Source of the DNA: a virus
Virus genome (UHGV): UHGV-0280597
DNA length: 16,951 nucleotides
Direction: 5' to 3' (one strand)
Positions 853 through 16,270 of this stretch are shown here, piece by piece (position 1 is the first letter of the stretch; each line of letters begins with the position of its first letter). Both the position numbers and the translations under genes were made by a program. Below the pieces are notes generated by a model. The model searched no databases, had not been told where the DNA came from, and saw only the letters and a list, made by a program, of their open reading frames with translations.

Positions 853-1197
853 TTAGTCCTTGCGTAGCTCGCTGATTCTTCTGTAAGTCTCTGGTTCTTT
901 GTTCCCGTACGTCTTCATTTCAGACTTCAACAGAGCAACGAGTGAATCCCATTCGTTGAGGATTCCTTTGAATGCCGGAACGCGCTTTGCAACCTTGTCG
1001 AATGAATCTCTGATTTCTGGAATCTGCTCAACAAGTGCAACGCATCGCCGAAAGTCTGCTGCGTCATGGGGAGCGCCGAAGTGATGACCATAGATATTCT
1101 TTTTCAGGCCACATGCGATTGAGGCAAGAGTTGCGCTACTGATGCCGACATCGCCAGTTGATTGCCATTTCAAAACCTTCATAGCCAAATCTGACAT
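853..1197 (-). CDS. hypothetical protein, 114 aa
   Basis: ORF-track ORF with ATG at 1197 and a GGAG 7 nt upstream; sits immediately downstream of tandem minus-strand terminators; no family recognised. Confidence 0.45.
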   Translation of the reverse strand: MSDLAMKVLKWQSTGDVGISSATLASIACGLKKNIYGHHFGAPHDAADFRRCVALVEQIPEIRDSFDKVAKRVPAFKGILNEWDSLVALLKSEMKTYGNKEPETYRRISELRKD

Positions 1198-1207
1198 TTC
1201 TTGTCTC

Positions 1208-1235
1208 CATAAAACAAAACTCGCCGTAGCGAGTT
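1208..1235 (-). terminator. intrinsic terminator (leftward), first of a tandem pair
   Basis: Perfect stem ACTCGC/GCGAGT (1219-1224/1229-1234) with loop CGTA; on the minus strand the hairpin is followed by UUUUGUUUUAU. Confidence 0.5.
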
Positions 1236-1238
1236 CAG

Positions 1239-1266
1239 ATAAAAGAAAACCCGCACTCGGCGGGTT
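1239..1266 (-). terminator. intrinsic terminator (leftward), second of a tandem pair
   Basis: Perfect 7-bp stem AACCCGC/GCGGGTT (1248-1254/1260-1266) with loop ACTCG; on the minus strand followed by UUCUUUUAU. Confidence 0.55.
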
Positions 1267-1545
1267 CGCATTCGTTCAAATTGCGTTTACTTCTTGGCGT
1301 TCTGTTCATCCATATCGATATACCATGGGTTGCTTCCCTTGGGCATGTTTAACGACTGCTCGCGATAGTATCTGATGCGCTCCATGAAATACTCGCGTGA
1401 GTGCTCAGGTTGCTCTCATGATACCTGCTCAGTGATAACAGGTATGTTAAGGCGCTCTCTGTACTCCATGCCTGATGCTGCAAGGTCAACGTTTACCTTG
1501 TTCTGTTTTTCTTTCGATTTCTCGGCGATGTTATGCCTGACATTG

Positions 1546-1788
1546 TCAACCCGCCTCCTTCTGAACATAACGGTTATAAATCAGTCCCTGAGGGCCATAA
1601 GGAAGCGGGATGTGCAACTCCTCTGGTTCAGAAACTATCCATTCTCCGGCCATCTCCGCTGGAGAGGTAATGATAAGTTGTTTGCTAATAAAAGGACCAC
1701 TCCTCTCAACAACAAGCTTACCATCTTCATTAATAAAAGCTTGGATGTCAGGTGTGCTTCCACACTTGGTGATGCAGCGTTTGAACAT
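1546..1788 (-). CDS. hypothetical protein, 80 aa from the ATG at 1788
   Basis: ORF-track ORF 1546..1830 trimmed to the in-frame ATG at 1788, which is preceded by GGGGGGA (Shine-Dalgarno-like) and lies downstream of an extended -10 element; the ATG at 1830 would lie upstream of that -10. Confidence 0.45.
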   Translation of the reverse strand: MFKRCITKCGSTPDIQAFINEDGKLVVERSGPFISKQLIITSPAEMAGEWIVSEPEELHIPLPYGPQGLIYNRYVQKEAG

Positions 1789-1811
1789 TTTGTGTCCCCC
1801 CATTTTATGTA

Positions 1812-1850
1812 CGGGGTAATTATAACACATTGAAATATAGTAATATTTGA
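1812..1850 (-). promoter_or_regulatory. candidate leftward promoter with extended -10 (TGtTATAAT)
   Basis: Minus-strand TGTTATAAT (reverse complement of plus 1819-1827) in an AT-rich intergenic segment directly upstream of the 80-aa ORF; the -35 is weak. Confidence 0.3.
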
Positions 1851-1914
1851 CGTAGATTTCTTTTGATCTATAAGCGATTTTTTAATGCTTTTAAGTTATA
1901 AATACTTGTTTTCA

Positions 1915-2586
1915 TCACCCATCTTGCTGCGGTGCTACTATTGAAAAGTGCTCACACCCTTTAGCCCAAATAGTTTTGATAGTTGTCCAACTGACTGGAA
2001 CCTTGATTTCGATTCTCCCGCTACAGTCACAAGTTTCGCAATCATCATCACCAAAGCATTCCGGGCAGCTTATAAACGTAGTTTCTGAAAATTCACCGGA
2101 TAGCACACCCTTAGCGCCGTTCTCGGCTGTTAGTCTCTTCGGCACCATGACCCAACCATCCGGAATTACCGGAGAGTTGCCGGGTTCTTTAATGTGCAAG
2201 CGAGGCTCACCATCTTTTGGCTCAGGCCACTGGCGCTCCATGTTGATCTTCAATTTATCTTCCATAGCAGCGGTAATTTCAGCATCGCTGATGCCAGCAC
2301 GGCGCTGTGAATCCCACAACAGAAACTGCATATCAGCCCACTCGCTAAGATCGTCTGGTTCGGCTGCGGCTTCCAGTGCCTCTTTTGAGAGGTGTTTCAG
2401 TGGACCAATGGGGCCAACGCAGCCAAATGTGGAGTCAGACCATTTGGCATGCTCGTGGCGAATCTGTTCGCGTTCCAGTGATGCCAGTGCAATTCGTGCC
2501 AGTTCCATTTGTTCGCCACGAGTAAGCCCGTTTTCAAGCGGATTTTTAATGAATAATTCGATACGTTCTTTGGTAATAGTGGTCAT
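1915..2586 (-). CDS. hypothetical protein with C-terminal Cys cluster (possible zinc ribbon), 223 aa
   Basis: ORF-track ORF; AAGGTG 8 nt upstream of the ATG at 2586; C-terminal motif CPECFGDDDCETCDC; tentatively similar to phage DUF551-type proteins from recall only. Confidence 0.55.
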   Translation of the reverse strand: MTTITKERIELFIKNPLENGLTRGEQMELARIALASLEREQIRHEHAKWSDSTFGCVGPIGPLKHLSKEALEAAAEPDDLSEWADMQFLLWDSQRRAGISDAEITAAMEDKLKINMERQWPEPKDGEPRLHIKEPGNSPVIPDGWVMVPKRLTAENGAKGVLSGEFSETTFISCPECFGDDDCETCDCSGRIEIKVPVSWTTIKTIWAKGCEHFSIVAPQQDG

Positions 2587-2588
2587 AG

Positions 2589-2780
2589 CTATTTCACCTT
2601 AATCTCAACATTTCGCAGCTTTAGCTCTACTGGCAGGTCTGACTTTCCTGTTAATGCTAATGCGAGATTTTCTGGAGTAATGAGAGCAGTTATTGTTTTC
2701 CCCCTCGCCAGACGAATAATCATTCGTATCTCGCAATCGTCACATGCTCCCGGTCGAACAATTGATATTTGTCCATTCAT
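2589..2780 (-). CDS. hypothetical small protein, 63 aa
   Basis: In-frame ATG at 2780 inside ORF-track ORF 2589..2942, preceded by GGAGAG and placed 1 nt after the upstream gene's TGA; the longer 117-aa form would overlap the Ea22-like gene by about 160 nt. Confidence 0.4.
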   Translation of the reverse strand: MNGQISIVRPGACDDCEIRMIIRLARGKTITALITPENLALALTGKSDLPVELKLRNVEIKVK

Positions 2781-2781
2781 C

Positions 2782-3411
2782 TCACTCTCCTTTGATGCGA
2801 ATGCCAGCGGCGCGCTCGGCTTCACTTTGTTCCCAAAACCACTTGTGAAGCGCCATAAGCTTTTCGTCAATCGGTGCATATTTGCGATTAAAGTAGGCCT
2901 GAGCATCTTTCTCAGATTCGTCCGGTAATTCGCCAGGGCCAAACAGTGTGTTATAAATCCATGCCAGTCCGCTTTTAGCGTCGCCAGTCGATTGCCATTC
3001 GATAATGGCAGCTTGCATGACCAGAATGTTTTTCCCGATTAATAGGTCCAGTTCTTTGTACCGGTTGCGGATGTATGCATTCTCGCTTTGTAATTTTGCG
3101 TTGCGATTCTCTGCTGCTTCCAGCTCAACACGCAGCTTCCCTACCGTTAGCGCAATTTCCTCGTTCTCCTGGTCGCGGGATTTGATGTATTGCTGGTTCC
3201 TTTCCCGTTCATCCAGTAGTGCCAAAGCAATCTTTGGATTAAAGGCAGCAATAAATTCAGCGTTGTTTTTCAGAACGTGTTGCGCAATGGCCTGACTACT
3301 TAGTCGGACCTCATAACCTCGTGCGCCACGGTGTGGTTTATATGAGTCCCAGTCTCCCCACGTTGCTTTCTCTGCCACATCACGCAGTGCCTGATAGTTA
3401 ATTTCGCTCAC
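2782..3411 (-). CDS. Ead/Ea22-like protein, about 209 aa
   Basis: ORF-track ORF 2782..3432; likely start is the GTG at 3411 preceded by AAGGAGG with a 6-nt spacer; coiled-coil segment ([33 protein letters not shown]) recalls lambda Ea22-family proteins. Confidence 0.55.
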
Positions 3412-3575
3412 TGGTTGCCTCCTTTGCGCCACATCGCATTCAGATATCTGTTGTCATTAACAGAACCGAAACTATTTCTTTTAAGCAATTCCTCTCTCGA
3501 TGGCATTGGTTTTACGCGTTGGCGAATAATCATTTCTGCCGGAAGAATGCCGGGATTGTATGCAAGTCCTCTCAT
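3408..3575 (-). CDS. hypothetical small protein, 55 aa (below the ORF-track cutoff)
   Basis: Manual translation [55 protein letters not shown]; ATG at 3575 preceded by AGAGGAA; its stop overlaps the downstream GTG start (GTGA coupling). Confidence 0.3.
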
Positions 3576-3591
3576 GGTAAATTCCTCTTTG

Positions 3592-3906
3592 TTAATTTAT
3601 TCGTATGCCTGCTCTTTCTTCATCGAGTTTTTTTAGCTTGTATCGCATAGCTCTTACTGAATAAATTGAGCGGCAGGTTGCAATTGCTATTTCTTCTGCG
3701 GAGAACTTACCGAAAAGTGATACTTCGGCTCTTGTCCAGCGTCTTCCACGAAGTCGGCTAACAATGTCAGCGCCAATCCTTGTTGCTTTCGCCATAACTG
3801 CTTTTTCAGTCCTTTCCAGTTTTTCAGCGATAACTTCAACTGGCATTGTCGCCGCTACTTCGCGCAAGAAATCGACTTCCCATTTCTCCCATGGAGTCTT
3901 TTTCAT
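3592..3906 (-). CDS. hypothetical protein with two internal W-x-x-x-E-V-x-F repeats, 104 aa
   Basis: ORF-track ORF; repeat segments [10 protein letters not shown] and [11 protein letters not shown] suggest a duplicated helical (possibly DNA-binding) unit; no family assigned. Confidence 0.5.
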
Positions 3907-3917
3907 AGGCGATACCG

Positions 3918-4400
3918 TTATTTGATAAGAAGTGAAGGTTTCCCAACTTTGAGTTGAGCACCGGGGATATTTAATCCTGCTTTTAGTTGGTGCTTGATTG
4001 CCAACTTGTCGGCTTTAATTGTCGTTTCAAACTCAACGTATTCAGGAGGAAGGGCGCTTGAGTCGATGATTTCTACAGTTTCTGACGGTTTGCGGATTGT
4101 TACCTGGTGAATACCTGCTCTAATCTTTTTCTTGCCAACCATTTCAAGCGATGAGGCTATATATGCCATAATGCTATCAATCTTATTTTGAATTACTGCT
4201 GCTCGTTCATTCAGTGACTTTGCCTCGTCCTTGAGGCGTTCAGCATAACCAGATTCATTTTTAATAATGGCGAGAAGTTGCTCTATTTTATCGGTAAATT
4301 CTCCTTCCATGCCTTCTATTGTGTCAGCAATCATCTCTGGTTCTAAATCTGAATCCATCAATTTTGCGTATTCATTGGCTATTTCATATAGTTTGCTCAC
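3918..4400 (-). CDS. Siphovirus Gp157-like protein, about 160 aa
   Basis: ORF-track ORF 3918..4406; likely GTG start at 4400 preceded by GGAGGT; N-terminus (V/M)SKLYEIANEY and coiled-coil character resemble the Gp157 family, which often accompanies phage recombinases (recall only). Confidence 0.5.
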   Translation of the reverse strand: MSKLYEIANEYAKLMDSDLEPEMIADTIEGMEGEFTDKIEQLLAIIKNESGYAERLKDEAKSLNERAAVIQNKIDSIMAYIASSLEMVGKKKIRAGIHQVTIRKPSETVEIIDSSALPPEYVEFETTIKADKLAIKHQLKAGLNIPGAQLKVGKPSLLIK

Positions 4401-5286
4401 TGGCAACCTCCAGTTTCGCTTTGCATTCTATGTAAATGGCTTGTACGTTCTGCTGCAATTTCATTCCAGATGTCAGGCGATATGCTTCTGCAAAATATCG
4501 TTTCAAATCATCCATGTTTTCTGCCTGAGCCATTTCATCACAAAGAAGTTGTGCTTTTTCCATTATTTCCTGCTGGCGTTTCCGTTCATCTTCGCGGATA
4601 TCTTCCTCTGATTTGTGCGGCATAACTGGTTCCTGATGCATACCTTCATCTTCGTTAAGCAGGTGAATGGCATTATCCAGTCGCTGGGCTTTAGGCCAGT
4701 ATTTGCTGGCGCGTTTAACTATTGTTTTACGCGCCATCTCTTCCCAGAATGTCTTCCACGGTCCATTCTTTGCCTTGCTCGTTGCTTCCACAGCTTTAAT
4801 TTCTGCCAGACTCATTTCTTCAGTCAGGTAGTCACCATCTGCTGTTTTAACCGTGCAATAACCACCAACAATAGAGCCTCGCTCACCAAATGCGTTGTAT
4901 TTGTGGGTTGGCGCTGAATCAAGGCCGTTTGATTCATAGGTGTCGTTTGAGTACACCAGTTTACATTGCCCCCACTTAATTGATCCTGTCGACTGTGCAA
5001 GGTGAAGTAATCCCATATAGCTGATATCAAGGCAAACCATGCCGTCGCGCGGAACTAGATAAGCAAGTTTGCTGGCCGGGTTTAAGGTGATGCCGATCGC
5101 CGCAACATTGATGATGGCGTTCTGTGCGCTGGTTGGATTTGCCAGTGCCGTTTTAGCCAGGTAATCATTTTTCTGGAAATACTGAATTGCAAACTGGCTT
5201 TCCTTAGCCCATGTCACCGTCTGTTCAGTCAATGCTCCGCAGAATAACTGCTCCTGCTGTTTAACGAATTCAACGATATTGCTCAT
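4384..5286 (-). CDS. recT: RecT-family single-strand annealing recombinase, 300 aa
   Basis: ORF-track ORF; size and sequence resemble RecT/Red-beta-type annealases (recall); occupies the lambda bet position; ATGA overlap with the upstream gene. Confidence 0.8.
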   Translation of the reverse strand: MSNIVEFVKQQEQLFCGALTEQTVTWAKESQFAIQYFQKNDYLAKTALANPTSAQNAIINVAAIGITLNPASKLAYLVPRDGMVCLDISYMGLLHLAQSTGSIKWGQCKLVYSNDTYESNGLDSAPTHKYNAFGERGSIVGGYCTVKTADGDYLTEEMSLAEIKAVEATSKAKNGPWKTFWEEMARKTIVKRASKYWPKAQRLDNAIHLLNEDEGMHQEPVMPHKSEEDIREDERKRQQEIMEKAQLLCDEMAQAENMDDLKRYFAEAYRLTSGMKLQQNVQAIYIECKAKLEVASEQTI

Positions 5287-5594
5287 GCTGCTTCTCCATA
5301 AATGTGTCTGCGTTTGAATATTGCGAAGGCATATTCAGCCTTAACTCTTTCGGTTATTGCATCCCAGAACCATTCAGCGGCTTTTTCCTGATAGTCACAG
5401 TCATCATCTTCCAGCCAGTCGATAGCGTCCTTAGTGTGTTCATCTGGCTTATATGAGCGAAGCATTTCGCTTATTGGGTCGCAGCGTTTGCAGAGGCGAT
5501 CAACTTCACTGTTGATTCGTTCGTAATCTTCATCAGTAAAACTTGCGATGATTTGCGATATTTCACGCTTATCATTCAGAGTCAGAATCATCAT
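5283..5594 (-). CDS. hypothetical acidic protein in the Gam/Abc slot, 103 aa
   Basis: ORF-track ORF; translationally coupled to recT (ATGA overlap at 5283-5286); position corresponds to the RecBCD-inhibitor slot of lambdoid phages, but no sequence-based assignment. Confidence 0.5.
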   Translation of the reverse strand: MMILTLNDKREISQIIASFTDEDYERINSEVDRLCKRCDPISEMLRSYKPDEHTKDAIDWLEDDDCDYQEKAAEWFWDAITERVKAEYAFAIFKRRHIYGEAA

Positions 5595-5675
5595 CTTTCT
5601 CCTGTTCTTTGTGCTGATTGAGCATTTTGTTCATCTGACGAATGAATTCTTCGTCTGACCAGTTATCTGTAAAAC

Positions 5676-5846
5676 TCATGGGCGGCCTTGTTGTTTCAAA
5701 ATATCCCAAAGCTTTTCGAGCAAACTTTTCATTCTTGGTTGTTTAAAGTCTGCTCCGGTTAGAATGTTTTTTCTTGAATGCTGTACCGATAAAATCGGGT
5801 TGAAAGGGCGAACCGATGCCGCCCCTGCAATAGCGAACTGTTGCAT
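5676..5846 (-). CDS. cIII: CIII-like protein (putative FtsH inhibitor), 56 aa
   Basis: Not in the ORF track (under 60 aa); manual translation MQQFAIAGAASVRPFNPILSVQHSRKNILTGADFKQPRMKSLLEKLWDILKQQGRP; AAGGAG 6 nt upstream of the ATG at 5846; N-terminal MQ-x-AIAG and C-terminal amphipathic L-x-K-L-W-D-I-L-x-Q-x-G-x-P match my recollection of lambda/P22 CIII. Confidence 0.5.
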   Translation of the reverse strand: MQQFAIAGAASVRPFNPILSVQHSRKNILTGADFKQPRMKSLLEKLWDILKQQGRP

Positions 5847-5921
5847 AGGATGCTCCTTCTGTTTGATTGCATAACGAAAACGCCTCGAGTGAAGCGTTAT
5901 TGGTATGCGGTAAAGCCGCGC

Positions 5922-6290
5922 TCAGGCGGCTTTGATAGTCATATCATCTGAATCAAATATTCCAGATGTGTCGATATCGGTAATTCTTATTCCTTCGCTA
6001 CCATCCATTGGAGGCCATCCTTCCTGACCATTTCCATCATTCCAGTCGAACTCACACACAACACCATATGCATTTAAGTCGCTTGAAATTGCTATAAGCA
6101 GAGCATGTTGCGCTAGCATGATTAATACAGCATTTAATACAGAGCCGTGTTTTTTGAGTCTGTATTCAGAGTCTGACCAGAAATTATTAATCTGGTGAAG
6201 TTTTTCCTCTGTCATTACGTCATGGTCGATTTCAATTTCTATTGATGCTTTCCAGTCGTAATCAATGATGTATTTTTTGATGTTTGACAT
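5922..6290 (-). CDS. hypothetical acidic protein, 122 aa
   Basis: ORF-track ORF; start at 6290 just downstream of a strong minus-strand terminator; acidic C-terminal region (DIDTSGIFDSDDMTIKAA). Confidence 0.5.
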   Translation of the reverse strand: MSNIKKYIIDYDWKASIEIEIDHDVMTEEKLHQINNFWSDSEYRLKKHGSVLNAVLIMLAQHALLIAISSDLNAYGVVCEFDWNDGNGQEGWPPMDGSEGIRITDIDTSGIFDSDDMTIKAA

Positions 6291-6310
6291 CTGTTCATAT
6301 CCTCATAGAT

Positions 6311-6338
6311 AAAAAATTGCCCTCACATTGGAGGGCAA
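6311..6338 (-). terminator. intrinsic terminator (leftward)
   Basis: Perfect 8-bp stem TTGCCCTC/GAGGGCAA (6317-6324/6331-6338), 6-nt loop; on the minus strand followed by UUUUUU (plus 6311-6316 AAAAAA). Confidence 0.6.
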
Positions 6339-6485
6339 AGAAGATTTCCAATAATCAGAACAAGTCGGCTCCTGTTTAGTTACGAGCGACATTGCTCCGT
6401 GTATTCACTCGTTGGAATGAATACACAGTGCAGTGTTTATTCTGTTGTTTGTGCCAAAAATAAAGGCCGACTATGCGTCCTGAAA

Positions 6486-6851
6486 TTACTTAACCAATGA
6501 TGCTGCATATTCGATAAGGTAAAGCTTTGGAGCCAACCAAATTTTTAGCCAGTCGAAATAATTGAAGAAAACAACAATAGAAGTAATCGCTATTCCTGAT
6601 GTGAAAAGTATCGATAAAATAACAATATCCGCATCATCTCCTTTATTGCATGCCAAAATCATCAGATAAACACACGCTATAATCACCAATACACAGAGAG
6701 CCTGAATTCCAGCTGATGATACGGCGTGCCACATCAAAAGCTGATGGATGACATCAGGAATCTGTGCCTGGCTAAATGAAACAGCCGCGTCTATTCCATT
6801 GCTGGCTTTTTGCAGTAGTTCTACGAGAATCTTGTTTGCTTGTTCTTCCAT
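6486..6851 (-). CDS. hypothetical integral membrane protein (about 3 predicted TM helices), 121 aa
   Basis: ORF-track ORF; ATG at 6851 preceded by AAGGTG; hydrophobic segments ALCVLVIIACVYLMILA, IVILSILFTSGIAITSIVVFF; flanked by terminator-like hairpins on both sides; located in the sieB/ral neighbourhood next to N. Confidence 0.6.
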   Translation of the reverse strand: MEEQANKILVELLQKASNGIDAAVSFSQAQIPDVIHQLLMWHAVSSAGIQALCVLVIIACVYLMILACNKGDDADIVILSILFTSGIAITSIVVFFNYFDWLKIWLAPKLYLIEYAASLVK

Positions 6852-6890
6852 ATATCACCTTGATTGTAATAAGCATGAAATTATTTACGG

Positions 6891-6922
6891 CTAAAAAATA
6901 AAGGCCACCATCAGGCAGCCTT
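6891..6922 (-). terminator. terminator-like hairpin plus U-run (leftward), candidate tL1
   Basis: Stem AAGGC/GCCTT (6901-6905/6918-6922) with inner CC/GG pairs; on the minus strand followed by UAUUUUUU; overlaps the stop codon of the 83-aa ORF. Confidence 0.35.
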
Positions 6923-7162
6923 GTTGTAAATGTTGCAGGTATCAAGTAAGTAATTAGATGGAGCGCCATAAATTATGAATTCATCGTTTGTCGGGTCCAT
7001 CTCCATCTCTTGGCCTATTGCCATTCTTGCGTCAGTGTCATCAGCGGCGAAGCATAAAACAGCCCACGCACCCATTGTTTTAAAAAGAACTGCAATTGGC
7101 TGTGGTTTTACTGAATTTGCGTTAGCGCGAAAATCACAAATCGCACTTTCATGAAACTCCAT
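6911..7162 (-). CDS. hypothetical acidic protein, 83 aa (first gene downstream of N)
   Basis: ORF-track ORF; position equivalent to ral/early accessory genes of lambdoid phages; no family recognised. Confidence 0.5.
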   Translation of the reverse strand: MEFHESAICDFRANANSVKPQPIAVLFKTMGAWAVLCFAADDTDARMAIGQEMEMDPTNDEFIIYGAPSNYLLDTCNIYNKAA

Positions 7163-7170
7163 ATCTCACC

Positions 7171-7470
7171 TCAAATAAGTGGTTTGCTGCCTAATTTCAT
7201 TTTCTGGCGACCAACACAAGTCACACCCATTTCACTGCGTGGCTTGCGGTAGTAAATACGGTTCTGTTTACTCTCGACTTCTTCTGCCTTCTTGCAGCGA
7301 AGGCTTCCGAGTGATGCTGCTTTATCTGCTCTGACGCAACCAGAGAGCTTTAGCGCAATTTTTCGCGCCAGTCGCTGCTCTTGCATTGCCTGTTCACGTT
7401 GAGCCTGTCTGCGTGCTCTGCGGCGATTTCTGGCGTTATCGTCAGCCAGATATGTAATGACTACTGTCAT
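7171..7470 (-). CDS. N: N-like transcription antitermination protein, 99 aa
   Basis: ORF-track ORF; GGAGG 5 nt upstream of the ATG at 7470; N-terminal arginine-rich motif (NARNRRRARRQAQ); C-terminus RKPRSEMGVTCVGRQKMKLGSKPLI resembles the lambda N C-terminus (recall); nut sites found in both operons. Confidence 0.8.
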   Translation of the reverse strand: MTVVITYLADDNARNRRRARRQAQREQAMQEQRLARKIALKLSGCVRADKAASLGSLRCKKAEEVESKQNRIYYRKPRSEMGVTCVGRQKMKLGSKPLI

Positions 7471-7782
7471 GTTGACCTCCGATGAAACAACTTTGGAATT
7501 TTTTTATTACAAAGTTGTTTCCATCCCCGCCAATTAGACGGGGATGGAAGAGCATTTATGAGCCTTTATGGACTCTGCTCGATCAGTTCTATTTAATTAA
7601 TCTCTCAATTGAATGTAAGTATTCACATAAATCCTCCTACCTCTTGTGCAGCTTTCTTGAATATGGTGGCGGCTGCATAACGCCTATGGAATTGACTTTG
7701 GCGGTGACGCGCCGGGTGCTTATCTTCCGGTTGCCGTCGTGCAGCTGCACTTCACGTCACCCCAAAGCCAACTACTCTTTGG

Positions 7783-7825
7783 TTCCCGCATTTCGGCGGG
7801 ACAATCCCATCAATGTTAAAGAGCC
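7783..7825 (-). promoter_or_regulatory. nutL (boxA-like GGCTCTTTAACA plus boxB hairpin)
   Basis: Minus-strand reading GGCTCTTTAACA-12 nt-TCCCGCCGAAATGCGGGAA; the boxB hairpin is identical to the one at 9479-9497 downstream of cro. Confidence 0.7.
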
Positions 7826-7872
7826 TACCAATCTGTTCCGTTTGGCTACCAGCGTCCTGCTGATGGCTAAAG

Positions 7873-7956
7873 AATACTGTAGGTATTTTATTGTGTAAAT
7901 ACCCAAGGTATTTATTTTGGTGAAATAATGATAAGCAAATGAATACAAAGGATATT
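7873..7956 (-). promoter_or_regulatory. OL operator cluster (three AATAC-N5-GTATT sites) with candidate pL
   Basis: Palindromic sites at 7873-7887 (AATACtgtagGTATT), 7898-7912 (AATACccaagGTATT) and 7942-7956 (AATACaaaggATATT); same motif as OR; candidate leftward -35/-10 (TTTACA-17-TATTCT) overlaps the first two sites. Confidence 0.6.
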
Positions 7957-8042
7957 TATTTTTTCGGTGTCTGCTTGTTCAGTGCTTTTTATGCGGGATA
8001 TGTGAAGTGGATCCCGATAGCTATTGCTGCCGGGATTATGGG

Positions 8043-8411
8043 TTAGTCAGCGAAGGTTAAGACGAGAATTACCTTAATGATGTCTGCTACAACAGACACG
8101 GCCATAGATAAACCAAAGACGATCCAAGCCATAGAGATGTCTTCACTACCATCGTATAGAGTTCCGTAATCACTGGTGTAAGGCGTAAATGTCGCGCCTT
8201 GATACAACAAGTATAAGCTTGATCCATAGAGGATAAATGCAGATATCCCTTGTATTGCTATGATCACTAGAATCATGAAACGAGCTGATCTATGCGCCCA
8301 AGCCTGGCTTATTTTTTCTGATAGAGATTTCGCAATAAAAGCATGCGCTAAGCCGTAAATTGTCGAGATTGCCAACATCCCCAAAAAGCTTGCTATAGCG
8401 GTTCCAACCAT
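8043..8411 (-). CDS. hypothetical small integral membrane protein (about 3 TM helices) in the rexAB slot, about 122 aa
   Basis: ORF-track ORF 8043..8432 (TTG start); more likely ATG at 8411 preceded by AAGGGG; begins 17 nt after the cI stop on the same strand with no intervening terminator seen; strongly hydrophobic segments. Confidence 0.6.
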   Translation of the reverse strand: MVGTAIASFLGMLAISTIYGLAHAFIAKSLSEKISQAWAHRSARFMILVIIAIQGISAFILYGSSLYLLYQGATFTPYTSDYGTLYDGSEDISMAWIVFGLSMAVSVVADIIKVILVLTFAD

Positions 8412-8428
8412 AATCGCCCCTTGCGTGA

Positions 8429-9145
8429 TCAAACCAGCCTTAGTTTTGTCTCAATTGCAACGCCTATAATCTTGCAGTTTCCATTGATTGGCACGAGAGG
8501 CCATGCAGGGTTAAGTCCCTTGAGGTATTTATTTCCGCCGTCGATTATCAGCTTCTTGAATGTTGCTTCGTTAGAGTCAGAAAGTTTTGCTATGACCAAG
8601 CTGCCGTTGATCGCCTCCCTTCCGGTATCGAAAAGAACGAATGTTCCCTCTGGAATGCTTAACCCAACCGGTGCCGTCATTGAATCACCTTCCACTTTAA
8701 GCCAGAACGCATTACCTTGAATATGCGCGTCAGACTCAAGCCAAACATCTATGTCTTTAATGGTGTATGGTTCGCATGCTTCACACCACGAGCCAGCCTG
8801 GATACTGCTTAACACCGGATACCTCTTTCCTGCTCTGTATTCCCCTGCATACCTTACGTTGGCATCGCTCTTAAGGCTTTCTGCCTGTTCTGCAACCTTG
8901 GCAGCAATTGACTGGCTAAAATCAGCAATTGAGACTTGCAACAATCGTGCAAAACCAGATGCAACCTCAACGTTTAGCGCGTTTCTGCCATTAAGATAAT
9001 GCCCTACCGCTCCTTGGGTGATACCCAGTTCATCAGCGATTGAGTATTGGGTTATTCCCAATTCTTTCTTTTTTGACTCATACAAAGCCTTAAGCCGCTT
9101 AGCGTCTTCGAGCTGTTCTGTCGTCAGTGATTTTTTATTTTCCAT
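8429..9145 (-). CDS. cI: CI-like prophage repressor (HTH N-domain plus LexA/S24-type autocleavage C-domain), 238 aa
   Basis: ORF-track ORF; N-terminus MENKKSLTTEQLEDAKRLKALYESKKKELGITQ parallels lambda CI (recall); GDSM serine motif in the C-domain; divergent from cro across a 106-bp operator region; no Shine-Dalgarno before the ATG (leaderless-type start). Confidence 0.9.
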   Translation of the reverse strand: MENKKSLTTEQLEDAKRLKALYESKKKELGITQYSIADELGITQGAVGHYLNGRNALNVEVASGFARLLQVSIADFSQSIAAKVAEQAESLKSDANVRYAGEYRAGKRYPVLSSIQAGSWCEACEPYTIKDIDVWLESDAHIQGNAFWLKVEGDSMTAPVGLSIPEGTFVLFDTGREAINGSLVIAKLSDSNEATFKKLIIDGGNKYLKGLNPAWPLVPINGNCKIIGVAIETKLRLV

Positions 9146-9151
9146 AGCTTA

Positions 9152-9220
9152 ATTCTAATAGCTAAGGTACTTAAACTAAAAATACCCTGAGTATTGATTG
9201 CTTTGAATACCTGTAGTATT
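9152..9220. promoter_or_regulatory. OR operator region (three sites) with pRM/pR
   Basis: Sites 9206-9220 (AATACctgtaGTATT) and 9181-9195 (AATACcctgaGTATT) are perfect; 9157-9171 (AATAGctaagGTACT) is degenerate; spacing 24-25 bp; minus-strand TAGAAT (plus 9152-9157) sits 6 nt upstream of the cI ATG. Confidence 0.65.
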
Positions 9221-9251
9221 CTTTGTTCATGGTTAATAACGGAGAGTGCAT

Positions 9252-9446
9252 ATGATTCGAATGACACTTGCCGATTACGCCAAAATCCATGGACAGGCTA
9301 AAGCAGCCAGTGACTTTGGTGTAATCCAGTGCGCTATCAGCAAGGCCATTCTGGCAGGCCGTAACATCATGGTTACGGTAAAGCCTGATGGCAGTGTGAT
9401 TGGAGAGGAAGTTCGTCCTTTCCCAAGCAACAAGAAAAACAAATAG
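9252..9446 (+). CDS. cro: Cro-like repressor, 64 aa from the ATG at 9252
   Basis: ORF-track ORF 9246..9446 (GTG); ATG at 9252 preceded by GGAGAG; sequence [62 protein letters not shown] parallels lambda Cro (recall). Confidence 0.85.
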
Positions 9447-9452
9447 TAACAC

Positions 9453-9497
9453 CGCTCTTTAACAGTCATGGTCCTCATTCCCGCCGAAATGCGGGAA
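9453..9497 (+). promoter_or_regulatory. nutR (boxA CGCTCTTTAACA plus boxB hairpin)
   Basis: CGCTCTTTAACA at 9453-9464 followed after 13 nt by hairpin TTCCCGC-CGAAAT-GCGGGAA (9478-9497); same boxB as nutL. Confidence 0.7.
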
Positions 9498-9503
9498 TAC
9501 AAC

Positions 9504-9537
9504 GCGCATAATTTGATGCGCATAACTTCTTATTTGT
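9504..9537 (+). terminator. tR1-like terminator candidate
   Basis: Stem GCGCAT/ATGCGC (9504-9509/9516-9521), loop AATTTG, followed by a T-rich tract (ataacttcttatttgtt); lies between nutR and cII. Confidence 0.35.
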
Positions 9538-9554
9538 TAAGGAAATACTTACAT

Positions 9555-9833
9555 ATGCAACTTACAAGTACTCGCAAGAAAGCGAATGCAATTACAAGCA
9601 ACATCCTGAATCGAATTGCTGTACGTGGTCAGCGAAAGGTTGCTGATGCATTAGGGATTAATGAATCGCAAATTTCGCGATGGAAAGACAGCTTTATCCC
9701 AAAGATGGCCATGCTTCTGGCCGTTCTTGAATGGGGTGTTGAAGACGAGGAGTTGGCGGAACTGGCTAAGAAAGTAGCCAGAATGCTGACAAAAGAAAAA
9801 GCCCCGAAGAACGGCGAATTCTTCGAGGCCTGA
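9555..9833 (+). CDS. cII: CII-like transcriptional activator, 92 aa from the ATG at 9555
   Basis: ORF-track ORF 9468..9833 trimmed to the ATG at 9555 preceded by AAGGA; segment QISRWKDSFIPKMAMLLAVLEWGVEDEELAELAKKVARML parallels lambda CII (recall). Confidence 0.85.
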   Translation: MQLTSTRKKANAITSNILNRIAVRGQRKVADALGINESQISRWKDSFIPKMAMLLAVLEWGVEDEELAELAKKVARMLTKEKAPKNGEFFEA

Positions 9834-9867
9834 TGTAGAAAGACTGGATCAATCCACAGGAGTCATT

Positions 9868-10029
9868 ATGACAAAACGTCGTAAGAAATACCAGGAAAAA
9901 GAAGAGATTCGACACCCTGATTCACCTGAGGGATTAGTGGTAGCCGCAGCAAATAACAGGGCGTTCGCAGAGCGCCTTGTTGGTGTTTACAGACTAGCCA
10001 AAGCAGGAGTGAAGCATGGGCGTCGTTAA
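9868..10029 (+). CDS. hypothetical small basic protein, 53 aa (below the ORF-track cutoff)
   Basis: Manual translation MTKRRKKYQEKEEIRHPDSPEGLVVAAANNRAFAERLVGVYRLAKAGVKHGRR; GGAG 6 nt upstream of the ATG at 9868; fills the gap between cII and the replication gene. Confidence 0.3.
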   Translation: MTKRRKKYQEKEEIRHPDSPEGLVVAAANNRAFAERLVGVYRLAKAGVKHGRR

Positions 10030-10906
10030 GTTAGCTGATTACAGGCATAACCCTGTACAACATCAGGAGGCATCCAGTATGGGGTATGTCTCTATACACC
10101 GCCAGTTTATGGACAGCAGGCTCTATAAGGACTCTCAGGCAGTACATCTTTGGCTTCACTTAATCCTCAAGGCTAATCACGAATCTACTGTCGTCAATAC
10201 GGATATCGGTCCGATAACTGTTGATCGCGGTCAGATGATAACTGGACGCCCGTCGCTGGTCAGAGAAACATTCATCCCCGACAACAAAGTTCGGAGCTTA
10301 TTACGGACTTTTGAGTCGAAAGGTATGCTTAATATTTGCTCGATGGGGAAGAAATTTAGCCTGTTTACAATCGTTAAATATGACGATTTTCAGGCAAAAA
10401 ATTGTCCAACGGTTGTCCAACGGTTGTCCAACGCAAACACCAGTAATGGCGCGGCTCTCAGCGGAGATTGTCCAACGGTTGTCCAACGGTTGTCCATAAA
10501 CAATAATATAAATAATATCTCTAATACTGACGTATTAGAGAGTGCCACAGCAGACAAAAAGTCTGACAAGAAAAAACCTTCCGTTAGCTGTCAGGATGTT
10601 GTCGATGCTTACCACGAAATCCTTCCTGAAGCGCCAAGAATCCGCGCACTGAATGACAAGCGTAAAAACCAGATCCGAACGTTCTGGCGCAAAGCCGGAG
10701 TGATAACCCGACAGCTTGACGGGCATGGTTTCACGATGCAGGACTGGAGAAATTATTTGAGCTACGTAGGCGAAAATTGCCGATGGATGTTCGAAGAGCG
10801 CCCAAACCATCAGCGCGGAACCGTCTGGCACAAAAAGGGATTTGATTTCCTGCTTAACGATAATACCTACCTGAAAGTTCGTGAGGGTGAACACGATGAC
10901 CGATAA
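10016..10906 (+). CDS. replication initiator (O-like) with origin iterons inside the coding sequence
   Basis: ORF-track ORF; alternative start ATG 10079 has a stronger Shine-Dalgarno (AGGAGG, 8-nt spacer); the iterons translate in frame as CPTVVQRLSN; stop overlaps the helicase start. Confidence 0.75.
   Translation: MGVVKLADYRHNPVQHQEASSMGYVSIHRQFMDSRLYKDSQAVHLWLHLILKANHESTVVNTDIGPITVDRGQMITGRPSLVRETFIPDNKVRSLLRTFESKGMLNICSMGKKFSLFTIVKYDDFQAKNCPTVVQRLSNANTSNGAALSGDCPTVVQRLSINNNINNISNTDVLESATADKKSDKKKPSVSCQDVVDAYHEILPEAPRIRALNDKRKNQIRTFWRKAGVITRQLDGHGFTMQDWRNYLSYVGENCRWMFEERPNHQRGTVWHKKGFDFLLNDNTYLKVREGEHDDR
10402..10530. repeat. ori iterons: six 11-bp direct repeats (TTGTCCAACGG) in two blocks of three, followed by an AT-rich tract
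   Basis: Units at 10402-10412, 10413-10423, 10424-10434 and 10468-10478, 10479-10489, 10490-10500 (last degenerate), then ataaacaataatataaataatatctctaatactg; lambdoid ori architecture. Confidence 0.75.
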
Positions 10907-12332
10907 TTTTTATGCGCCGCCCCATAGCATCGAGGCAGAGCAGGCGGTGATTGGTGGATTGCTTCTGGATGATGACAGCAGTGAGCGCGTCCAGAAGGTT
11001 CTGGCGATGCTGAATCCTGACTCATTTTACAGCCGACCACACAAAATCCTTTTCGAAGAAATAACCAGAATGCACCGGGAGCAAAAGCCAGTAGATGGCC
11101 TGACGCTTTTCGATGAACTGGAGCGTAAATCGTTAACGGCGTCTGTTGGCGGTTTTGCTTATATCGCTGAGATCGCAAAGAACACGCCAAGCGCAGCAAA
11201 CATCGTTGCCTATGCAATGCAGGTTCGTGAAACCGCAATGGAACGCTACGCCATCAACCGCATGACTGAAGCGACGGAATTGCTCTATTCCCGCAACGGA
11301 ATGACTGCAACGCAGAAGTACGAAGCTATTCAGGCGATTTTCACGCAACTGACAGACCATGCAAAAACCGGATCGCGTCGCGGCCTTCGCTCATTTGGTG
11401 AGGTCATGGAAGACTGGGTTAGCGACCTTGAGAAGCGATTTGACCCGTCAGGCGAACAACGAGGAATGAGCACAGGGATCCCATCGCTGGACAGGATGCT
11501 GTCACCGAAAGGTCTGGTGAAAGGCTCTCTGTTTGTCATTGGCGCTCGCCCTAAGATGGGGAAAACGACGCTATACAGCCAGATGGCAATCAACTGCGCA
11601 GTGCATGAGAAAAAGCCCGCTCTGATGTTCAGCCTTGAAATGCCCGGTGACCAGATACTGGAAAAACTGGTAGGGCAGAAGTCAGGTGTTAACCCAAATA
11701 TTTTTTACCTTCCGGTGACAAATGACGCTGATGACGGATATCAGGGTGATTACGATGGTGACTTCAACAGGGCGATCGAAACAGCCAATCGCTTGAGTGA
11801 AATCGACCTGCTTTACATCGACGACACGCCGGGATTATCTCTGGCTCAAATCGTCAGCGAAAGCCGTCGAATCAAGCGAGAAAAAGGATGTGTTGGCATG
11901 ATTCTGGTCGATTACCTGACACTAATGACTGCTGAGAAGGCCGATCGAAACGACCTTGCCTACGGCATGATCACCAAAGGACTGAAGAACCTTGCCAAAG
12001 AGCTTGATTGCGTTGTTGTGCTTTTGACACAGCTTAACCGCGCGCTGGAAAGCCGAACCAATAAACGCCCATTACCAAGTGACTCGCGAGATACAGGGCA
12101 GATTGAACAGGATTGCGATTATTGGGTGGGGATCCATCGGGAAGGTGCTTTTGATGACAGCGTTCCTCCTGGTGAAACCGAACTAATCCTTCGTCTCAAT
12201 CGTCATGGCAATACCGGCACGGTGTATTGCATTCAGGCAAATGGCGCTATTTATGACACAGACCAACAGTCTGCTGAAATGCGCCGCCGTGAACGCGAGG
12301 AACCGCAATCCAAGAAGAAAGGAGGATTCTGA
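10896..12332 (+). CDS. DnaB-family replicative helicase, 478 aa
   Basis: ORF-track ORF 10881..12332 trimmed to the ATG at 10896 (GAGGGTGA upstream); N-terminal SIEAEQAVIGGLL motif and Walker A GARPKMGKT typical of DnaB-like helicases (recall). Confidence 0.9.
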   Translation: MTDNFYAPPHSIEAEQAVIGGLLLDDDSSERVQKVLAMLNPDSFYSRPHKILFEEITRMHREQKPVDGLTLFDELERKSLTASVGGFAYIAEIAKNTPSAANIVAYAMQVRETAMERYAINRMTEATELLYSRNGMTATQKYEAIQAIFTQLTDHAKTGSRRGLRSFGEVMEDWVSDLEKRFDPSGEQRGMSTGIPSLDRMLSPKGLVKGSLFVIGARPKMGKTTLYSQMAINCAVHEKKPALMFSLEMPGDQILEKLVGQKSGVNPNIFYLPVTNDADDGYQGDYDGDFNRAIETANRLSEIDLLYIDDTPGLSLAQIVSESRRIKREKGCVGMILVDYLTLMTAEKADRNDLAYGMITKGLKNLAKELDCVVVLLTQLNRALESRTNKRPLPSDSRDTGQIEQDCDYWVGIHREGAFDDSVPPGETELILRLNRHGNTGTVYCIQANGAIYDTDQQSAEMRRREREEPQSKKKGGF

Positions 12333-12412
12333 TGACCATCTACATCACTGAGCTTGTAACAGGCCTGCTGGTAATCGCAGGCCTTTTTATTTGGGGGAGA
12401 GGGAAGTCATGA
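12332..12412 (+). CDS. hypothetical 26-aa hydrophobic peptide
   Basis: Manual translation MTIYITELVTGLLVIAGLFIWGRGKS; AAGGAGG with 6-nt spacer before the ATG at 12332; start overlaps the helicase stop and its stop overlaps the ninB start. Confidence 0.35.
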   Translation: MTIYITELVTGLLVIAGLFIWGRGKS

Positions 12413-12849
12413 AAAAACTAACCTTTGAAATTCGATCTCCAGCACATCAGCAAAACGCTATTCACGCAGTACAGCAAATCCTTCCAGACCCAACCAAACC
12501 AATCGTAGTAACCATTCAGGAACGCAACCGCAGCTTAGACCAAAACAGGAAGCTATGGGCCTGCTTAGGTGACGTCTCTCGTCAGGTTGAATGGCATGGT
12601 CGCTGGCTGGATGCAGAAAGCTGGAAGTGTGTGTTTACCGCAGCATTAAAGCAGCAGGATGTTGTTCCTAACCTTGCCGGGAATGGCTTTGTGGTAATAG
12701 GCCAGTCAACCAGCAGGATGCGTGTAAGCGAATTTGCGGAGCTATTAGAGCTTATACAGGCATTCGGTACAGAGCGTGGCGTTAAGTGGTCAGACGAAGC
12801 GCGACTGGCTCTGGAGTGGAAAGCGAGATGGGGAGATCGGGCTGCATGA
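12409..12849 (+). CDS. ninB: NinB (Orf-family recombination protein), 146 aa
   Basis: ORF-track ORF 12391..12849 trimmed to the ATG at 12409; sequence MKKLTFEIRSPAHQQNAIHAVQQILPDP matches my recollection of lambda NinB closely. Confidence 0.9.
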   Translation: MKKLTFEIRSPAHQQNAIHAVQQILPDPTKPIVVTIQERNRSLDQNRKLWACLGDVSRQVEWHGRWLDAESWKCVFTAALKQQDVVPNLAGNGFVVIGQSTSRMRVSEFAELLELIQAFGTERGVKWSDEARLALEWKARWGDRAA

Positions 12850-13373
12850 CTATCAAATCAAATACGCCAGCACACGACAAGGACTGCTGGCAAACGCCGC
12901 TTTGGCTTTTTGATGCACTGGATATTGAGTTTGGATTCTGGCTGGATTCGGCAGCGAGCGACAAAAATGCTCTGTGTGCTCACTGGCTAACTGAGGCCGA
13001 CGACGCGCTCAATTCTGAGTGGGTAAGCCACGGTGCAATCTGGAATAACCCACCGTACAGCAATATCAGGCCGTGGGTGGAAAAAGCCGCTGAGCAGTGC
13101 ATACAACAGCGACAGACGGTAGTTATGCTTGTGCCAGAGGATATGTCAGTCGGATGGTTCAGCAAGGCTCTGGAGAGTGTCGACGAAGTTCGCATTATCA
13201 CTGATGGACGGATTAATTTTATCGAACCATCGACAGGGCTGGAGAAGAAGGGAAACAGCAAAGGCTCCATGCTGCTGATTTGGCGACCGTTCATCAGTCC
13301 TCGACGGATGTTTACTACCGTATCCAAAGCGGCATTGATGGCGATCGGGCAGGGCGTCAGGAGGGCGGCATGA
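12846..13373 (+). CDS. phage DNA N6-adenine methyltransferase (Dam-like), 175 aa
   Basis: ORF-track ORF 12786..13373 trimmed to the ATG at 12846 (ATGA overlap with ninB stop); NPPY catalytic motif ([10 protein letters not shown]) typical of N6-adenine methyltransferases. Confidence 0.8.
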
Positions 13374-13546
13374 GGCGACAGCGACGAAGTTTCACCGACA
13401 TCATCTGCGAAAACTGCAAATACCTTCCAACGAAACGCTCCAGAAATAAACGCAAGCCAATCCCAAAAGAATCTGACGTAAAAACCTTCAACTACACGGC
13501 TCACCTGTGGGATATCCGGTGGCTAAGACATCGTGCGAGGAAATGA
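13370..13546 (+). CDS. ninE: NinE, 58 aa
   Basis: In-frame ATG at 13370 within ORF-track ORF 13280..13546; [52 protein letters not shown] resembles lambda NinE (recall); ATGA overlap with the methylase stop. Confidence 0.8.
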
Positions 13547-13908
13547 CAATGGATTATTCACAGTTAAGTGATTTTGAAATTAACGTGGCGGTATTCGAAG
13601 CCATTCATAACGGATCACCGGATTACAAAGAAGGTGAGAATGGCGATATGGTGTTTGTCTCATTTGAGGGAGACATTGTAAACGGAGACGCAGTTGAAGT
13701 AGAAGTTGAGCGCGGATCCTTTAACCCATGCGCAAACCCAGCAGACTCATGGCCGATTATTGAAAAATACAGGATTAGCATTATCAATCTCGATGAAGAC
13801 GAGTGGGGTGCACGCGGTGTGGCCTACTGTAAATCTAAGCGAGCTATACATGAAAATCCCCTCCGCGCCGCCATGATTGTCTTTCTCATGATGCAGAGAA
13901 TCCAATAA
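13543..13908 (+). CDS. hypothetical nin-region protein, 121 aa
   Basis: ORF-track ORF 13507..13908 trimmed to the ATG at 13543 (overlaps ninE stop); acidic; conserved position in nin regions but family not confidently recognised. Confidence 0.6.
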
Positions 13909-14087
13909 TGCTTAGCCCATCCCAATCCATTCAATACCAGAAAGAAAGCGTCGAGCGGGCTTTAACGTGCGCTAATTGCGGTCAAAAGCTGCATGTGCTG
14001 GAAGTTCACGTGTGTGAGCACTGCTGTGCAGAACTGATGAGCGATCCGAATAGCTCAATGTACGAGGAAGAAGACGATGGTGATTAG
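13908..14087 (+). CDS. ninF: NinF, 59 aa (below the ORF-track cutoff)
   Basis: Manual translation [59 protein letters not shown] matches my recollection of lambda NinF; start overlaps the preceding stop. Confidence 0.75.
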   Translation: MLSPSQSIQYQKESVERALTCANCGQKLHVLEVHVCEHCCAELMSDPNSSMYEEEDDGD

Positions 14088-15916: not shown

Positions 15917-15958
15917 CAGCATGATTGCCACGGATGGCAACATATTAACGGCATAATA

Positions 15959-16265: not shown

Positions 16266-16270
16266 AATAT

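Follow-up and report, generated by a model that had tools for sequence, protein, structure and literature searches.

The leader of the antitermination gene N in UHGV virus genome UHGV-0280597 (a stretch of 16,951 nucleotides [nt], referred to here as the window) is, to judge from its sequence, an ordinary lambda-type leader with an extra 206-nt module spliced into it. The window covers a lambdoid early region in which N lies on the minus strand; coordinates are window positions 1-16,951 and the leader is read on the minus (N-sense) strand (Table 1). The upstream third of the leader is a known element, and the module, called the cassette below, is apparently undescribed: no description of it was found in the literature. 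We tentatively interpret the cassette as an accessory cis-acting module of the N 5' untranslated region (UTR), and it probably tunes the amount of N protein. Lambdoid phages express N before any other gene, and the amount made feeds into the choice between lysis and lysogeny; lambda sets this amount within the leader, through nutL, RNase III and translational repression.

An original prediction, made from the letters alone, had described an unusually long and highly structured leader between nutL and the N start codon. Both properties are borne out. Approximately 313 nt separate boxB from the N ATG (about 310 had been estimated), and the N 5' UTR is approximately 394 nt in length, versus approximately 222 nt in lambda and approximately 188 nt in HK620. 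The minimum free energy (MFE) of positions 7870-7451 is -142.5 kcal/mol, compared with -107.7 +/- 4.9 kcal/mol for dinucleotide shuffles (z = -7.1, 0/100), and the last 254 nt of the leader alone give z = -5.3 against shuffles (0/200). Every reported repeat, palindrome and mini-open reading frame (ORF) is present where it had been placed, on the minus strand: GGTGACG (7703-7709) with CGTCACC (7755-7761), the palindrome GTGCAGCTGCAC (7739-7750), TGCAGC (7647-7652) with GCTGCA (7673-7678), and a start-stop mini-ORF (AGGAGG 7638-7633, ATG 7628-7626, TGA 7625-7623). The cassette contains the TGCAGC/GCTGCA repeat, the start-stop and the two hairpins that had been called perfect; GGTGACG/CGTCACC and the palindrome lie in the part of the leader that is shared with other phages.

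Table 1. Coordinates of the N leader, its cassette and neighbouring features (SD, Shine-Dalgarno sequence; uORF, upstream ORF; bp, base pairs; aa, amino acids).
Feature	Position	Strand	Description
Accessory cassette	7690-7485	-	206 nt, non-coding; flanked by repeat CCAAAGU... (7701-7691, 7495-7485)
Degenerate N translation start	7685-7637	-	AGGCG-UU-AUG, ATG 7678-7676; opens short unconserved uORF MQPPPYSRKLHKR, stop TAG 7639-7637
Hairpin P1	UGCAGC 7677-7672 / GCUGCA 7652-7647	-	Buries UG of the fossil AUG
Invariant 18-nt core	7638-7621	-	AGGAGGAUUUAUGUGAAU; perfect SD, then AUG-UGA (AGGAGG-AUUU-AUG-UGA)
Invariant AU tract	7600-7591	-	UUAAUUAAAU; single-stranded by alignment and RNAalifold
Hairpin P2	7580-7550	-	Outer GAGCA/UGCUC (7580-7576 / 7554-7550), inner GAGUC/GGCUC
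Hairpin P3 (GC-rich)	7549-7519	-	UUCCAUCCCCG(UC)/(GG)CGGGGAUGGAA; 11-13 bp here
Hairpin P4 (AU-rich)	7521-7484	-	GAAACAACUUUG/CAAAGUUGUUUC; 3 nt before N SD; 3' arm is the right copy of the flanking repeat
Basal ('boxC') stem	7773-7690	-	21 bp with 1-nt bulge (G7702); MFE fold
N gene	7470-7171	-	99 aa; phrog_271 'anti-termination protein N-like', E = 1e-36; ATG 7470, stop 7173-7171
N ribosome-binding site	7480-7476	-	SD GGAGG
cI-type repressor	9145-8429	-	Upstream of N on the minus strand
pL promoter	7899-7871	-	-35 TTTACA, 17-nt spacer, -10 TATTCT; promoter scan
nutL	7824-7784	-	boxA, spacer and boxB; HK620 annotates nutL on the same sequence
boxA	7824-7814	-	GCTCTTTAACA / GCUCUUUAACA
boxB hairpin	7801-7784	-	UCCCGC-CGAAAU-GCGGGA

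The limits of the cassette are defined by a clean insertion/deletion difference among related phages. In megablast comparisons with phage genomes, HK620, mEpX2, HK630, HF4s and several Stx phages match in two pieces, and CUS-3 (98.6%) and HK140 (87.8%) match through the leader including the extra segment. HK620, mEpX2, HK630 and HF4s read ...GCCAAAGTCAAT directly into CATCGGAGGTCAACATG, and the window, CUS-3 and HK140 have 206 nt at this point; the HK620-type join without the cassette runs from ...CCAAAGTCAAT onto CATCGGAGG. With the cassette as query, a distant-mode BLAST search of 50,697 phage records matched CUS-3 and HK140 alone. Of the complete E. coli genomes, 159/5426 have the cassette, in three identity bands (96-100%, approximately 80% and approximately 74%). 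The same leader occurs in 525 genomes, of which 153 (approximately 30%) have the cassette, and most leaders that lack it are of a 245-nt form, including that of strain H19.

Further copies were recovered by pattern scans. When IMG/VR was scanned for the invariant core, 68 loci were returned, approximately 65 of them in a pL-leader context. Two independent probes, one for P1 and one for the AU tract together with P2, led back to these loci and to a small number of chance matches; every cassette copy that they recovered had an intact core. In a metagenome scan in which the core was left free, 18 copies were found with the core intact in 18/18. The 68-locus set is thus the one selected via the core; the E. 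coli genome, independent-probe and metagenome sets were selected without it. Scanning species-representative genomes with the core produced only seven unrelated chance matches (Firmicutes or metagenome-assembled genomes), and three further pattern scans, by which the family was already saturated, revealed no new diverged alleles.

All true cassette copies lie within a pL leader, immediately ahead of the first gene transcribed from pL, and have a variety of neighbours. The cassette precedes N of the window type, of the P22 gp24 type (loci L024, L053, L071 and L085) and of a 933W-like type (L070), and it follows at least five different basal-stem variants; in L050 it is followed by a 66-aa ORF (MSSRISNEQ...) and then by N. 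On both flanks L053 matches Cronobacter phage ENT47670 at 98% identity, and ENT47670 lacks the cassette: in L053 the cassette stands between perfect 14-bp direct repeats, CAAAGCCATTTCAC, of which ENT47670 has a single copy. An exact 11-bp flanking repeat, CCAAAGTCAAT, is present in E. coli 19KM, and the right copy in the window has drifted to CCAAAGTTGTTT. This flanking repeat is the CCAAAG... end of the basal-stem strand, repeated as the 3' arm of P4. Judged by this distribution, the cassette is a discrete, dispensable, recombining and portable unit. A transposable element (an insertion sequence or miniature inverted-repeat element) was considered and rejected, as there are no terminal inverted repeats, the genomic context is single and the window has no second copy.

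The cassette may have arisen via misaligned recombination at a conserved 'boundary' sequence before N, and it could be lost through recombination between its flanking repeats. Its left end, CCAAAGTCAATTCCATAGGCGTTATG (CCAAAGTCAATTCCATAGGCGTTATGCAG), is paralogous to the N start, CCAAAGTTGTTTCATCGGAGGTCAACATG (CCAAAGTTGTTTCATCGGAGGTCAACATGACAG), and the corresponding interval of CUS-3 is annotated 'bsq5; boundary sequence'. L070 (IMGVR_UViG_3300034682_000410) has three stacked CCAAAG...GGAGG...ATG junctions before its 933W-like N; by their arrangement, both L070 and L050 are examples of boundary-sequence recombination. In E. coli 'numer 3' (NZ_CP141863; L113:~590-710), a 39-aa hydrophobic ORF with its own ribosome-binding site (RBS), MLDIMTNPILGGLVTTFAICFGFTIWSEVDDWMWERKNK, sits exactly at the cassette joint, which suggests that the joint between stem and N RBS is a moron insertion site. 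This ORF belongs to phrog_7482 (E = 8e-25, function not assigned) and is not annotated by PGAP.

Between boxB and the basal stem, the leader of E. coli M9 (L007:868-1122) carries a second, independent insert of approximately 250 nt, which is also present in L041, L044, L052, L062, L063, L075 and L115. It contains an AGGAGG of its own with a mini-ORF of three codons behind it, AUGGUGCACUAA, and is seen both with the cassette (L007) and without it (L115). Folding of the M9-type insert is unremarkable (z = -0.74), and Rfam gave no match to it at either gathering or permissive thresholds.

The cassette itself (71 A, 55 U, 42 G and 38 C) is A/U-rich and mostly paired. Its start-stop consists of a properly spaced SD, a start codon and an immediate stop codon, and is invariant in all copies. 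UGAAU (7625-7621) of the core pairs with AUUCA (7614-7610), forming a small hairpin that includes the UGA; further downstream, P2, P3 and P4 adjoin one another. P3 and P4 are the hairpins that had been described as perfect stems of 9 bp (7521-7547) and 11 bp (7484-7521), respectively. Both are present, but the AU-rich stem has 12 bp (GAAACAACTTTG/CAAAGTTGTTTC) and the GC-rich stem 11-13 bp (TTCCATCCCCG/CGGGGATGGAA, 7519-7549). Their perfection is real in the window but atypical: among 93 cassette copies, P3 is perfect in two and P4 in seven. P3 has an A.A mismatch in 39/42 of the other copies of the window's own allele and a 1-nt bulge in alleles B-D, and P4 has a C.U mismatch in 80/93.

Alternative pairings were also noted. 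The core (7626-7643) could pair with an invariant pyrimidine island, CAUAAAUGCUCUUCCAUC (7543-7560), which comprises the 3' arm of P2 and the start of P3, through 14 Watson-Crick pairs and one wobble out of 18; CUCUUCC in this island could also pair with the N SD, a possible alternative-pairing switch. Pairing between core and island was set aside: it is not favoured in either the MFE or the alifold structure and is only partly possible in other alleles. P3 was rejected as a boxB, its loops (UAAUU, AAUUC, UUAU) being unlike the CGAAAU of boxB, as was a second nut site: GCUCUUC at 7553 is only a 6-7-nt partial boxA within a stem, and the window contains 18 instances of the loose motif.

Covariation across related phages, the check proposed with the original prediction, supports the structures. 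In an alignment of 37 distinct cassette variants, RNAalifold predicts P1, the small UGA-containing hairpin, P2, P3 and P4. On the curated structure, standard pairs fill 99.3% of the pair cells, compensatory change is seen at six pairs (versus 0-2 in controls with the partners slid by 1-3 columns), and the covariation score is 0.111 versus 0.054 +/- 0.004 in shuffles. Compensatory changes affect three inner pairs and one outer pair of P2; in P3, CCAU/AUGG in one allele is replaced by CUG/C(C or U)AG in others; and in P4 of the P22-type allele, C-G becomes U-A and A-U becomes G-C. Columns are invariant at 75% of paired versus 33% of unpaired positions (Fisher p = 1.6e-9). Overall, 108/219 cassette columns are invariant, and the 18-nt core is the longest unbroken stretch of them (permutation p ~1e-4). 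The core and the 10-nt AU tract are the same in all of approximately 110 copies, among alleles that are approximately 74-80% identical and whose loops diverge freely.

This pattern bears on the possibility that the cassette is a neutral fossil: a functionless leftover of misaligned boundary recombination, with a decayed start and other remains stacked in it, harmless and lost via its repeats. We consider this rather unlikely. The paralogy between the left end and the N start is what such an origin would leave behind, as are the three stacked junctions of L070 and the other inserts at the same site in L050 and L113, but every stem has been kept, partly through compensatory changes, in alleles that share only some 74-80% identity, and the core and AU tract have stayed fixed in approximately 110 copies while the loops diverged. 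Presence and absence with direct repeats in two lineages, the majority of prophages that have this leader and lack the cassette, and the CUS-3 authors' label of merely 'boundary sequence' are likewise consistent with a fossil; the spread of the cassette to several N types is not, and useless DNA is usually soon lost from phage genomes. If the cassette is inert after all, it would be a clean example of boundary-sequence recombination stacking and decaying translation starts.

Upstream of the cassette, the basal stem pairs AGUUGGCUUUGGGGUGACGUG (7773-7753) with CGCGUCACC and CCAAAGUCAAUU (7711-7690), which flank the bulged G7702. The GGTGACG/CGTCACC repeat falls inside this stem, which encloses the palindrome hairpin GUGCAGCUGCAC (GTGCAGCTGCAC) and a CCGG..CCGG hairpin. 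The stem starts 11 nt after boxB and, in relatives without the cassette, ends 4 nt before the N SD. The lambda leader folds in the same way (GGCUUUGGGGUGUGUG / CACACACC-A-CCAAAGCU, versus GGCUUUGGGGUGACGUG / CGCGUCACC-G-CCAAAGUC in the window) with the bulge at the same site, and the P22 leader also folds into this stem with the same bulge. Between 16 and 21 bp are kept in nine lineages including P22, with the bulge fixed in place, and the inner helix covaries: GGUGACGUG/CGCGUCACC, GAUUGGAUG/CAUCCAAUC, GGUGUGUG/CACACACC, GAUGCGGUG/CACCGCAUC and ACUGGCG/CGCCAGU. By sequence and position the basal stem is a homologue of the lambda N-leader stem, and as such already known biology. We equate it with the 'boxC' hairpin that RNase III processes in the lambda N leader and that modulates the repression of N translation through nutL; the lambda hairpin and the nutL-dependent autoregulation of N translation were reportedly worked out by Kameyama in 1991 and Wilson in 1997 and 2002.

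A canonical RNase III substrate spans about two helical turns. The basal stem has this length of double-stranded RNA, and P3 (11-13 bp) and P4 (12 bp) fall short of it; the basal stem is the best candidate for RNase III cleavage in this leader. The original prediction had proposed RNase III-type processing or translational control of N, which fits the upstream lambda-type stem; P3, P4 and the start-stop belong elsewhere, in the separate cassette. That P3 and P4 should themselves be RNase III sites, or directly mask and unmask the N RBS, is improbable because they are short and imperfect in most copies (a mismatch or a bulge) and because a much better, lambda-homologous substrate is present upstream. 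The two hairpins do adjoin each other as well as the SD, might stack as one helix of approximately 24 bp and are both conserved with compensatory changes, but the SD and AUG lie outside them and the predicted accessibility of the N SD is equal with and without the cassette. More generally, simple masking or insulation of the SD by the cassette is not supported, as the modelled accessibility showed no consistent difference. The observation behind the original prediction is confirmed, and its interpretation is partly supported.

In lambda, translation of N is repressed via nutL, and the intervening RNA has been called 'highly structured' (PMC5725501). The P22 leader yields a stable 96-nt RNA, P22B, which ends in ...CCAAAGCCAUUUCA, 16 nt before the start of gene 24 (PMC13397905). 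We mapped the 3' end of P22B exactly onto the 3' end of the P22 basal stem, that is, onto the point of cassette insertion; in the gene 24 leader, P22B makes up the 3' half of the basal-stem structure (P22-like phage As3: L117:351-446). An RNA end at the base of this homologous stem hints, indirectly, that the stem in the window may be cut as well. The P22B paper drew no link to the lambda RNase III hairpin.

P22B is relevant to another reading, in which the cassette is a payload freed by cuts at the basal stem and near the N start, acting in trans, for instance as a regulatory small RNA, as a sponge for ribosomes or RF2, or as a decoy that draws off a host factor or a defence system. The cassette is part of the first RNA made after infection or induction, independently of N; it is a compact, strongly folded RNA in which certain single-stranded segments are invariant, it is moron-like in being accessory and portable, and it is inserted exactly where P22B ends. 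The 3' arm of P4 repeats the P22B-type end, and a second cut there could free the cassette. We nevertheless regard such a processed RNA as distinctly unlikely, since the cassette has neither its own promoter nor a terminator-type 3' end, has no Rfam match beyond a chance-level 16-bit match of P3 to a CRISPR repeat model, and is confined to one context, immediately before the first pL gene, as a role in cis would explain at least equally well. The embedded small RNA that had been proposed matches no known small-RNA family in Rfam, and the known prophage small RNAs AsxR, AgvB and Pas are located near Q/pR' rather than in the N leader, according to the literature.

The searches behind these statements covered promoters, terminators and RNA families. 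In the promoter scan, pL was the sole sigma-70-like site, leaving the cassette without a promoter of its own. No intrinsic terminator was predicted on the minus strand in 7100-8100, where P3 is followed by AAACAACUUUG; one chance-level terminator-like site was found on the plus strand. The own promoter and defined 3' end of an independent small-RNA gene are both lacking from the cassette. At gathering score, Rfam 15 identified only two tRNAs (16191-16343) in the window, and 7300-8100 gave nothing better than E = 2. The match of P3 (7546-7517, minus strand) is to CRISPR-DR18 and weak, at 16 bits versus a gathering score of 50 (E = 7). P3 has CCCCG...CGGGGAU in common with type I-E repeats of E. 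coli. That P3 might be an RNA anti-CRISPR, imitating a CRISPR repeat, was rejected, as the match is at chance level and the stem differs in alleles B-D.

The same scans weigh on an attenuator, in which Rho- or structure-dependent termination or pausing between nutL and N would let N stimulate its own transcription, modulated by a ribosome on the uORF or start-stop. The cassette does lie downstream of nutL, where N-modified polymerase would read through, and it combines a ribosome-loading site with a C/A-rich, G-poor P1 loop. It has, however, no hairpin with a U run, and as an A/U-rich and mostly base-paired RNA it would load Rho poorly; we know of no such terminator in any N leader. An attenuator is accordingly very improbable.

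A protein-coding role, either for a plus-strand 138-aa ORF (7482-7898) or for a small sense peptide, is highly implausible. The plus-strand ORF is antisense to the whole N leader, nutL and pL, and PGAP calls antisense 'hypothetical proteins' of 129-138 aa in NU14, UTI89 and others (WP_011478232.1; L004:1030-1419, L009:1030-1446). It has a 20-residue match to phrog_6589, and a 42-aa sense ORF is annotated in HK140. Among homologues, though, no in-frame ORF is conserved on either strand: indels of 1, 2 and 6 nt occur, no frame survives those of 1-2 nt, the longest open stretch is anywhere between 32 and 80 aa in sense and between 40 and 79 aa in antisense, and substitutions are mostly non-synonymous. 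The 206-nt indel is not a multiple of three, an antisense ORF would cross nutL and pL, and a PHROG search of the sense ORFs gave no match. The uORF opened by the fossil AUG (7678) reads MQPP and continues with residues that are unrelated between alleles, which differ by a 2-nt indel; it spans 13 codons in the window, 17 codons in alleles B and C (where it ends at the start-stop UGA) and 52 aa in L070, and its stop is mutated in L095. The antisense 'hypothetical protein', which keeps no common frame among the alleles, is very probably spurious.

We return to our tentative reading of the cassette as a cis-acting module, retained as part of the 5' UTR of N mRNA. If RNase III cuts the basal stem as in lambda, the N message would begin a few nt before the cassette and then present, in order, the decayed start with its AUG buried in P1, the SD-AUG-UGA, an AU-rich single strand, and P2-P3-P4. 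The cassette would add 206 nt to the distance that separates the N start from nutL and from the processing stem; the start-stop could serve as a high-affinity ribosome-binding decoy, and stable hairpins would come to lie between the new 5' monophosphate end and the N start. The likeliest effect would be on N mRNA stability and N translation: a ribosome bound at the start-stop, together with the hairpins, could block 5'-end-dependent RNase E, and autorepression by nutL, Nus factors and N, which works over a short structured leader, could be loosened. Either way, the amount or timing of N would shift.

Several points weigh against this interpretation. The cassette is dispensable, being absent from approximately 70% of the prophages that share this leader and this N. 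In modelled ensembles, removing the cassette leaves the accessibility of the N SD unchanged, both at full length and after a notional RNase III cut. The decayed translation start at the left end and the stacked copies in L070 are of a kind that can be a by-product of recombination, and the mechanism is one that we infer from anatomy and conservation. As to the conservation, there are only four or five alleles, and so few independent compensatory events, related sequences can exceed shuffles without structure, and the comparison of paired with unpaired columns used a structure predicted from the same alignment.

A broader claim, which we consider doubtful, would make the cassette an undescribed accessory RNA module: immediate-early, embedded in a leader, loading a ribosome at its start-stop, and acting after RNase III cleavage either to control N dosage and the lysis-lysogeny decision or, once excised, in trans. 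The N leader would then be a second moron-like site for RNA cargo, besides the one downstream of pR'.

The surroundings of the leader are those of a lambdoid immunity region. tIMM, OL1-3, pL and nutL are annotated at homologous places in HK620, which is approximately 98% identical there. Transcription from pL should start at approximately 7864, a position assigned because the resulting RNA 5' sequence, AUCAGCAGGACGC (AUCAGCAGG...), is homologous with that of lambda pL RNA. A 129-aa hkaS-like ORF (8432-8043, minus strand) lies between the repressor gene and OL/pL, in the position of HK620 hkaS; in lambda, this position is occupied by rexAB. Near the right end of the window are two tRNA genes on the plus strand (16191-16262 and 16271-16343; Rfam tRNA scores of 55 and 61 bits), downstream of a Q-like region as in Stx-type lambdoid phages.

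Natural N leaders prove modular: in one common group of E. coli prophages, approximately 30% combine an RNase III-type stem with the cassette, and in other phages the same joint is empty or holds a gene for a small membrane peptide. Comparing the window, CUS-3 and HK140 with HK620, or L053 with ENT47670, provides natural isogenic variants for the study of leader architecture and N tuning. The RefSeq antisense 'hypothetical protein' over this region, being very probably spurious, calls for correction of the annotation.

Among known systems, the start-stop resembles start-stop uORFs and the 'bar' minigenes of the lambda pL transcript in having a strong SD, an AUG and an early stop in an untranslated part of a pL transcript. 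The bar minigenes are two-codon minigenes known from their toxicity in pth mutants. They have two sense codons and are located near attP and elsewhere, whereas the cassette start-stop has no sense codon after its AUG, lies in the N leader and is known from its sequence. The 'boundary sequences' or moron sites annotated in the lambdoid phages HK620 and CUS-3 are comparable as short conserved sequences at gene borders that act as recombination joints; however, a moron normally consists of a gene with its own promoter and terminator, and the cassette has neither these nor an ORF.

Known stabilisers of 5' UTRs include ompA-type hairpins, ribosome-binding stabilisers of the STAB-SD type and obstacles to RNase E scanning. 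The cassette shares with them stable hairpins and a strong SD far upstream of the start codon, a likeness that is purely architectural. The put RNAs of HK022 are also two abutting stem-loops in a lambdoid pL leader, but put acts in phages that lack N, whereas phages with the cassette have N and nut sites, and the only distant-mode matches of the cassette were to CUS-3 and HK140.

The closest relatives are those of the basal stem. It occupies the same site as the lambda N-leader stem, between boxB and the N start, and the sequences of its 5' strand (GGCUUUGGGGUG...) and 3' strand (...CACC-N-CCAAAG) are recognisably those of lambda. Cleavage by RNase III is established for the lambda stem, and the stem described here is known from sequence alone. 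In lambda, HK620 and P22, the N RBS follows within approximately 4-16 nt of the stem, whereas here 206 nt of structured RNA intervene. P22B is a stable RNA from the homologous leader of gene 24 (N), and its 3' end corresponds to both the cassette joint and the flanking sequence in L053; P22 itself has no cassette, and P22B represents half of the basal stem rather than the cassette.

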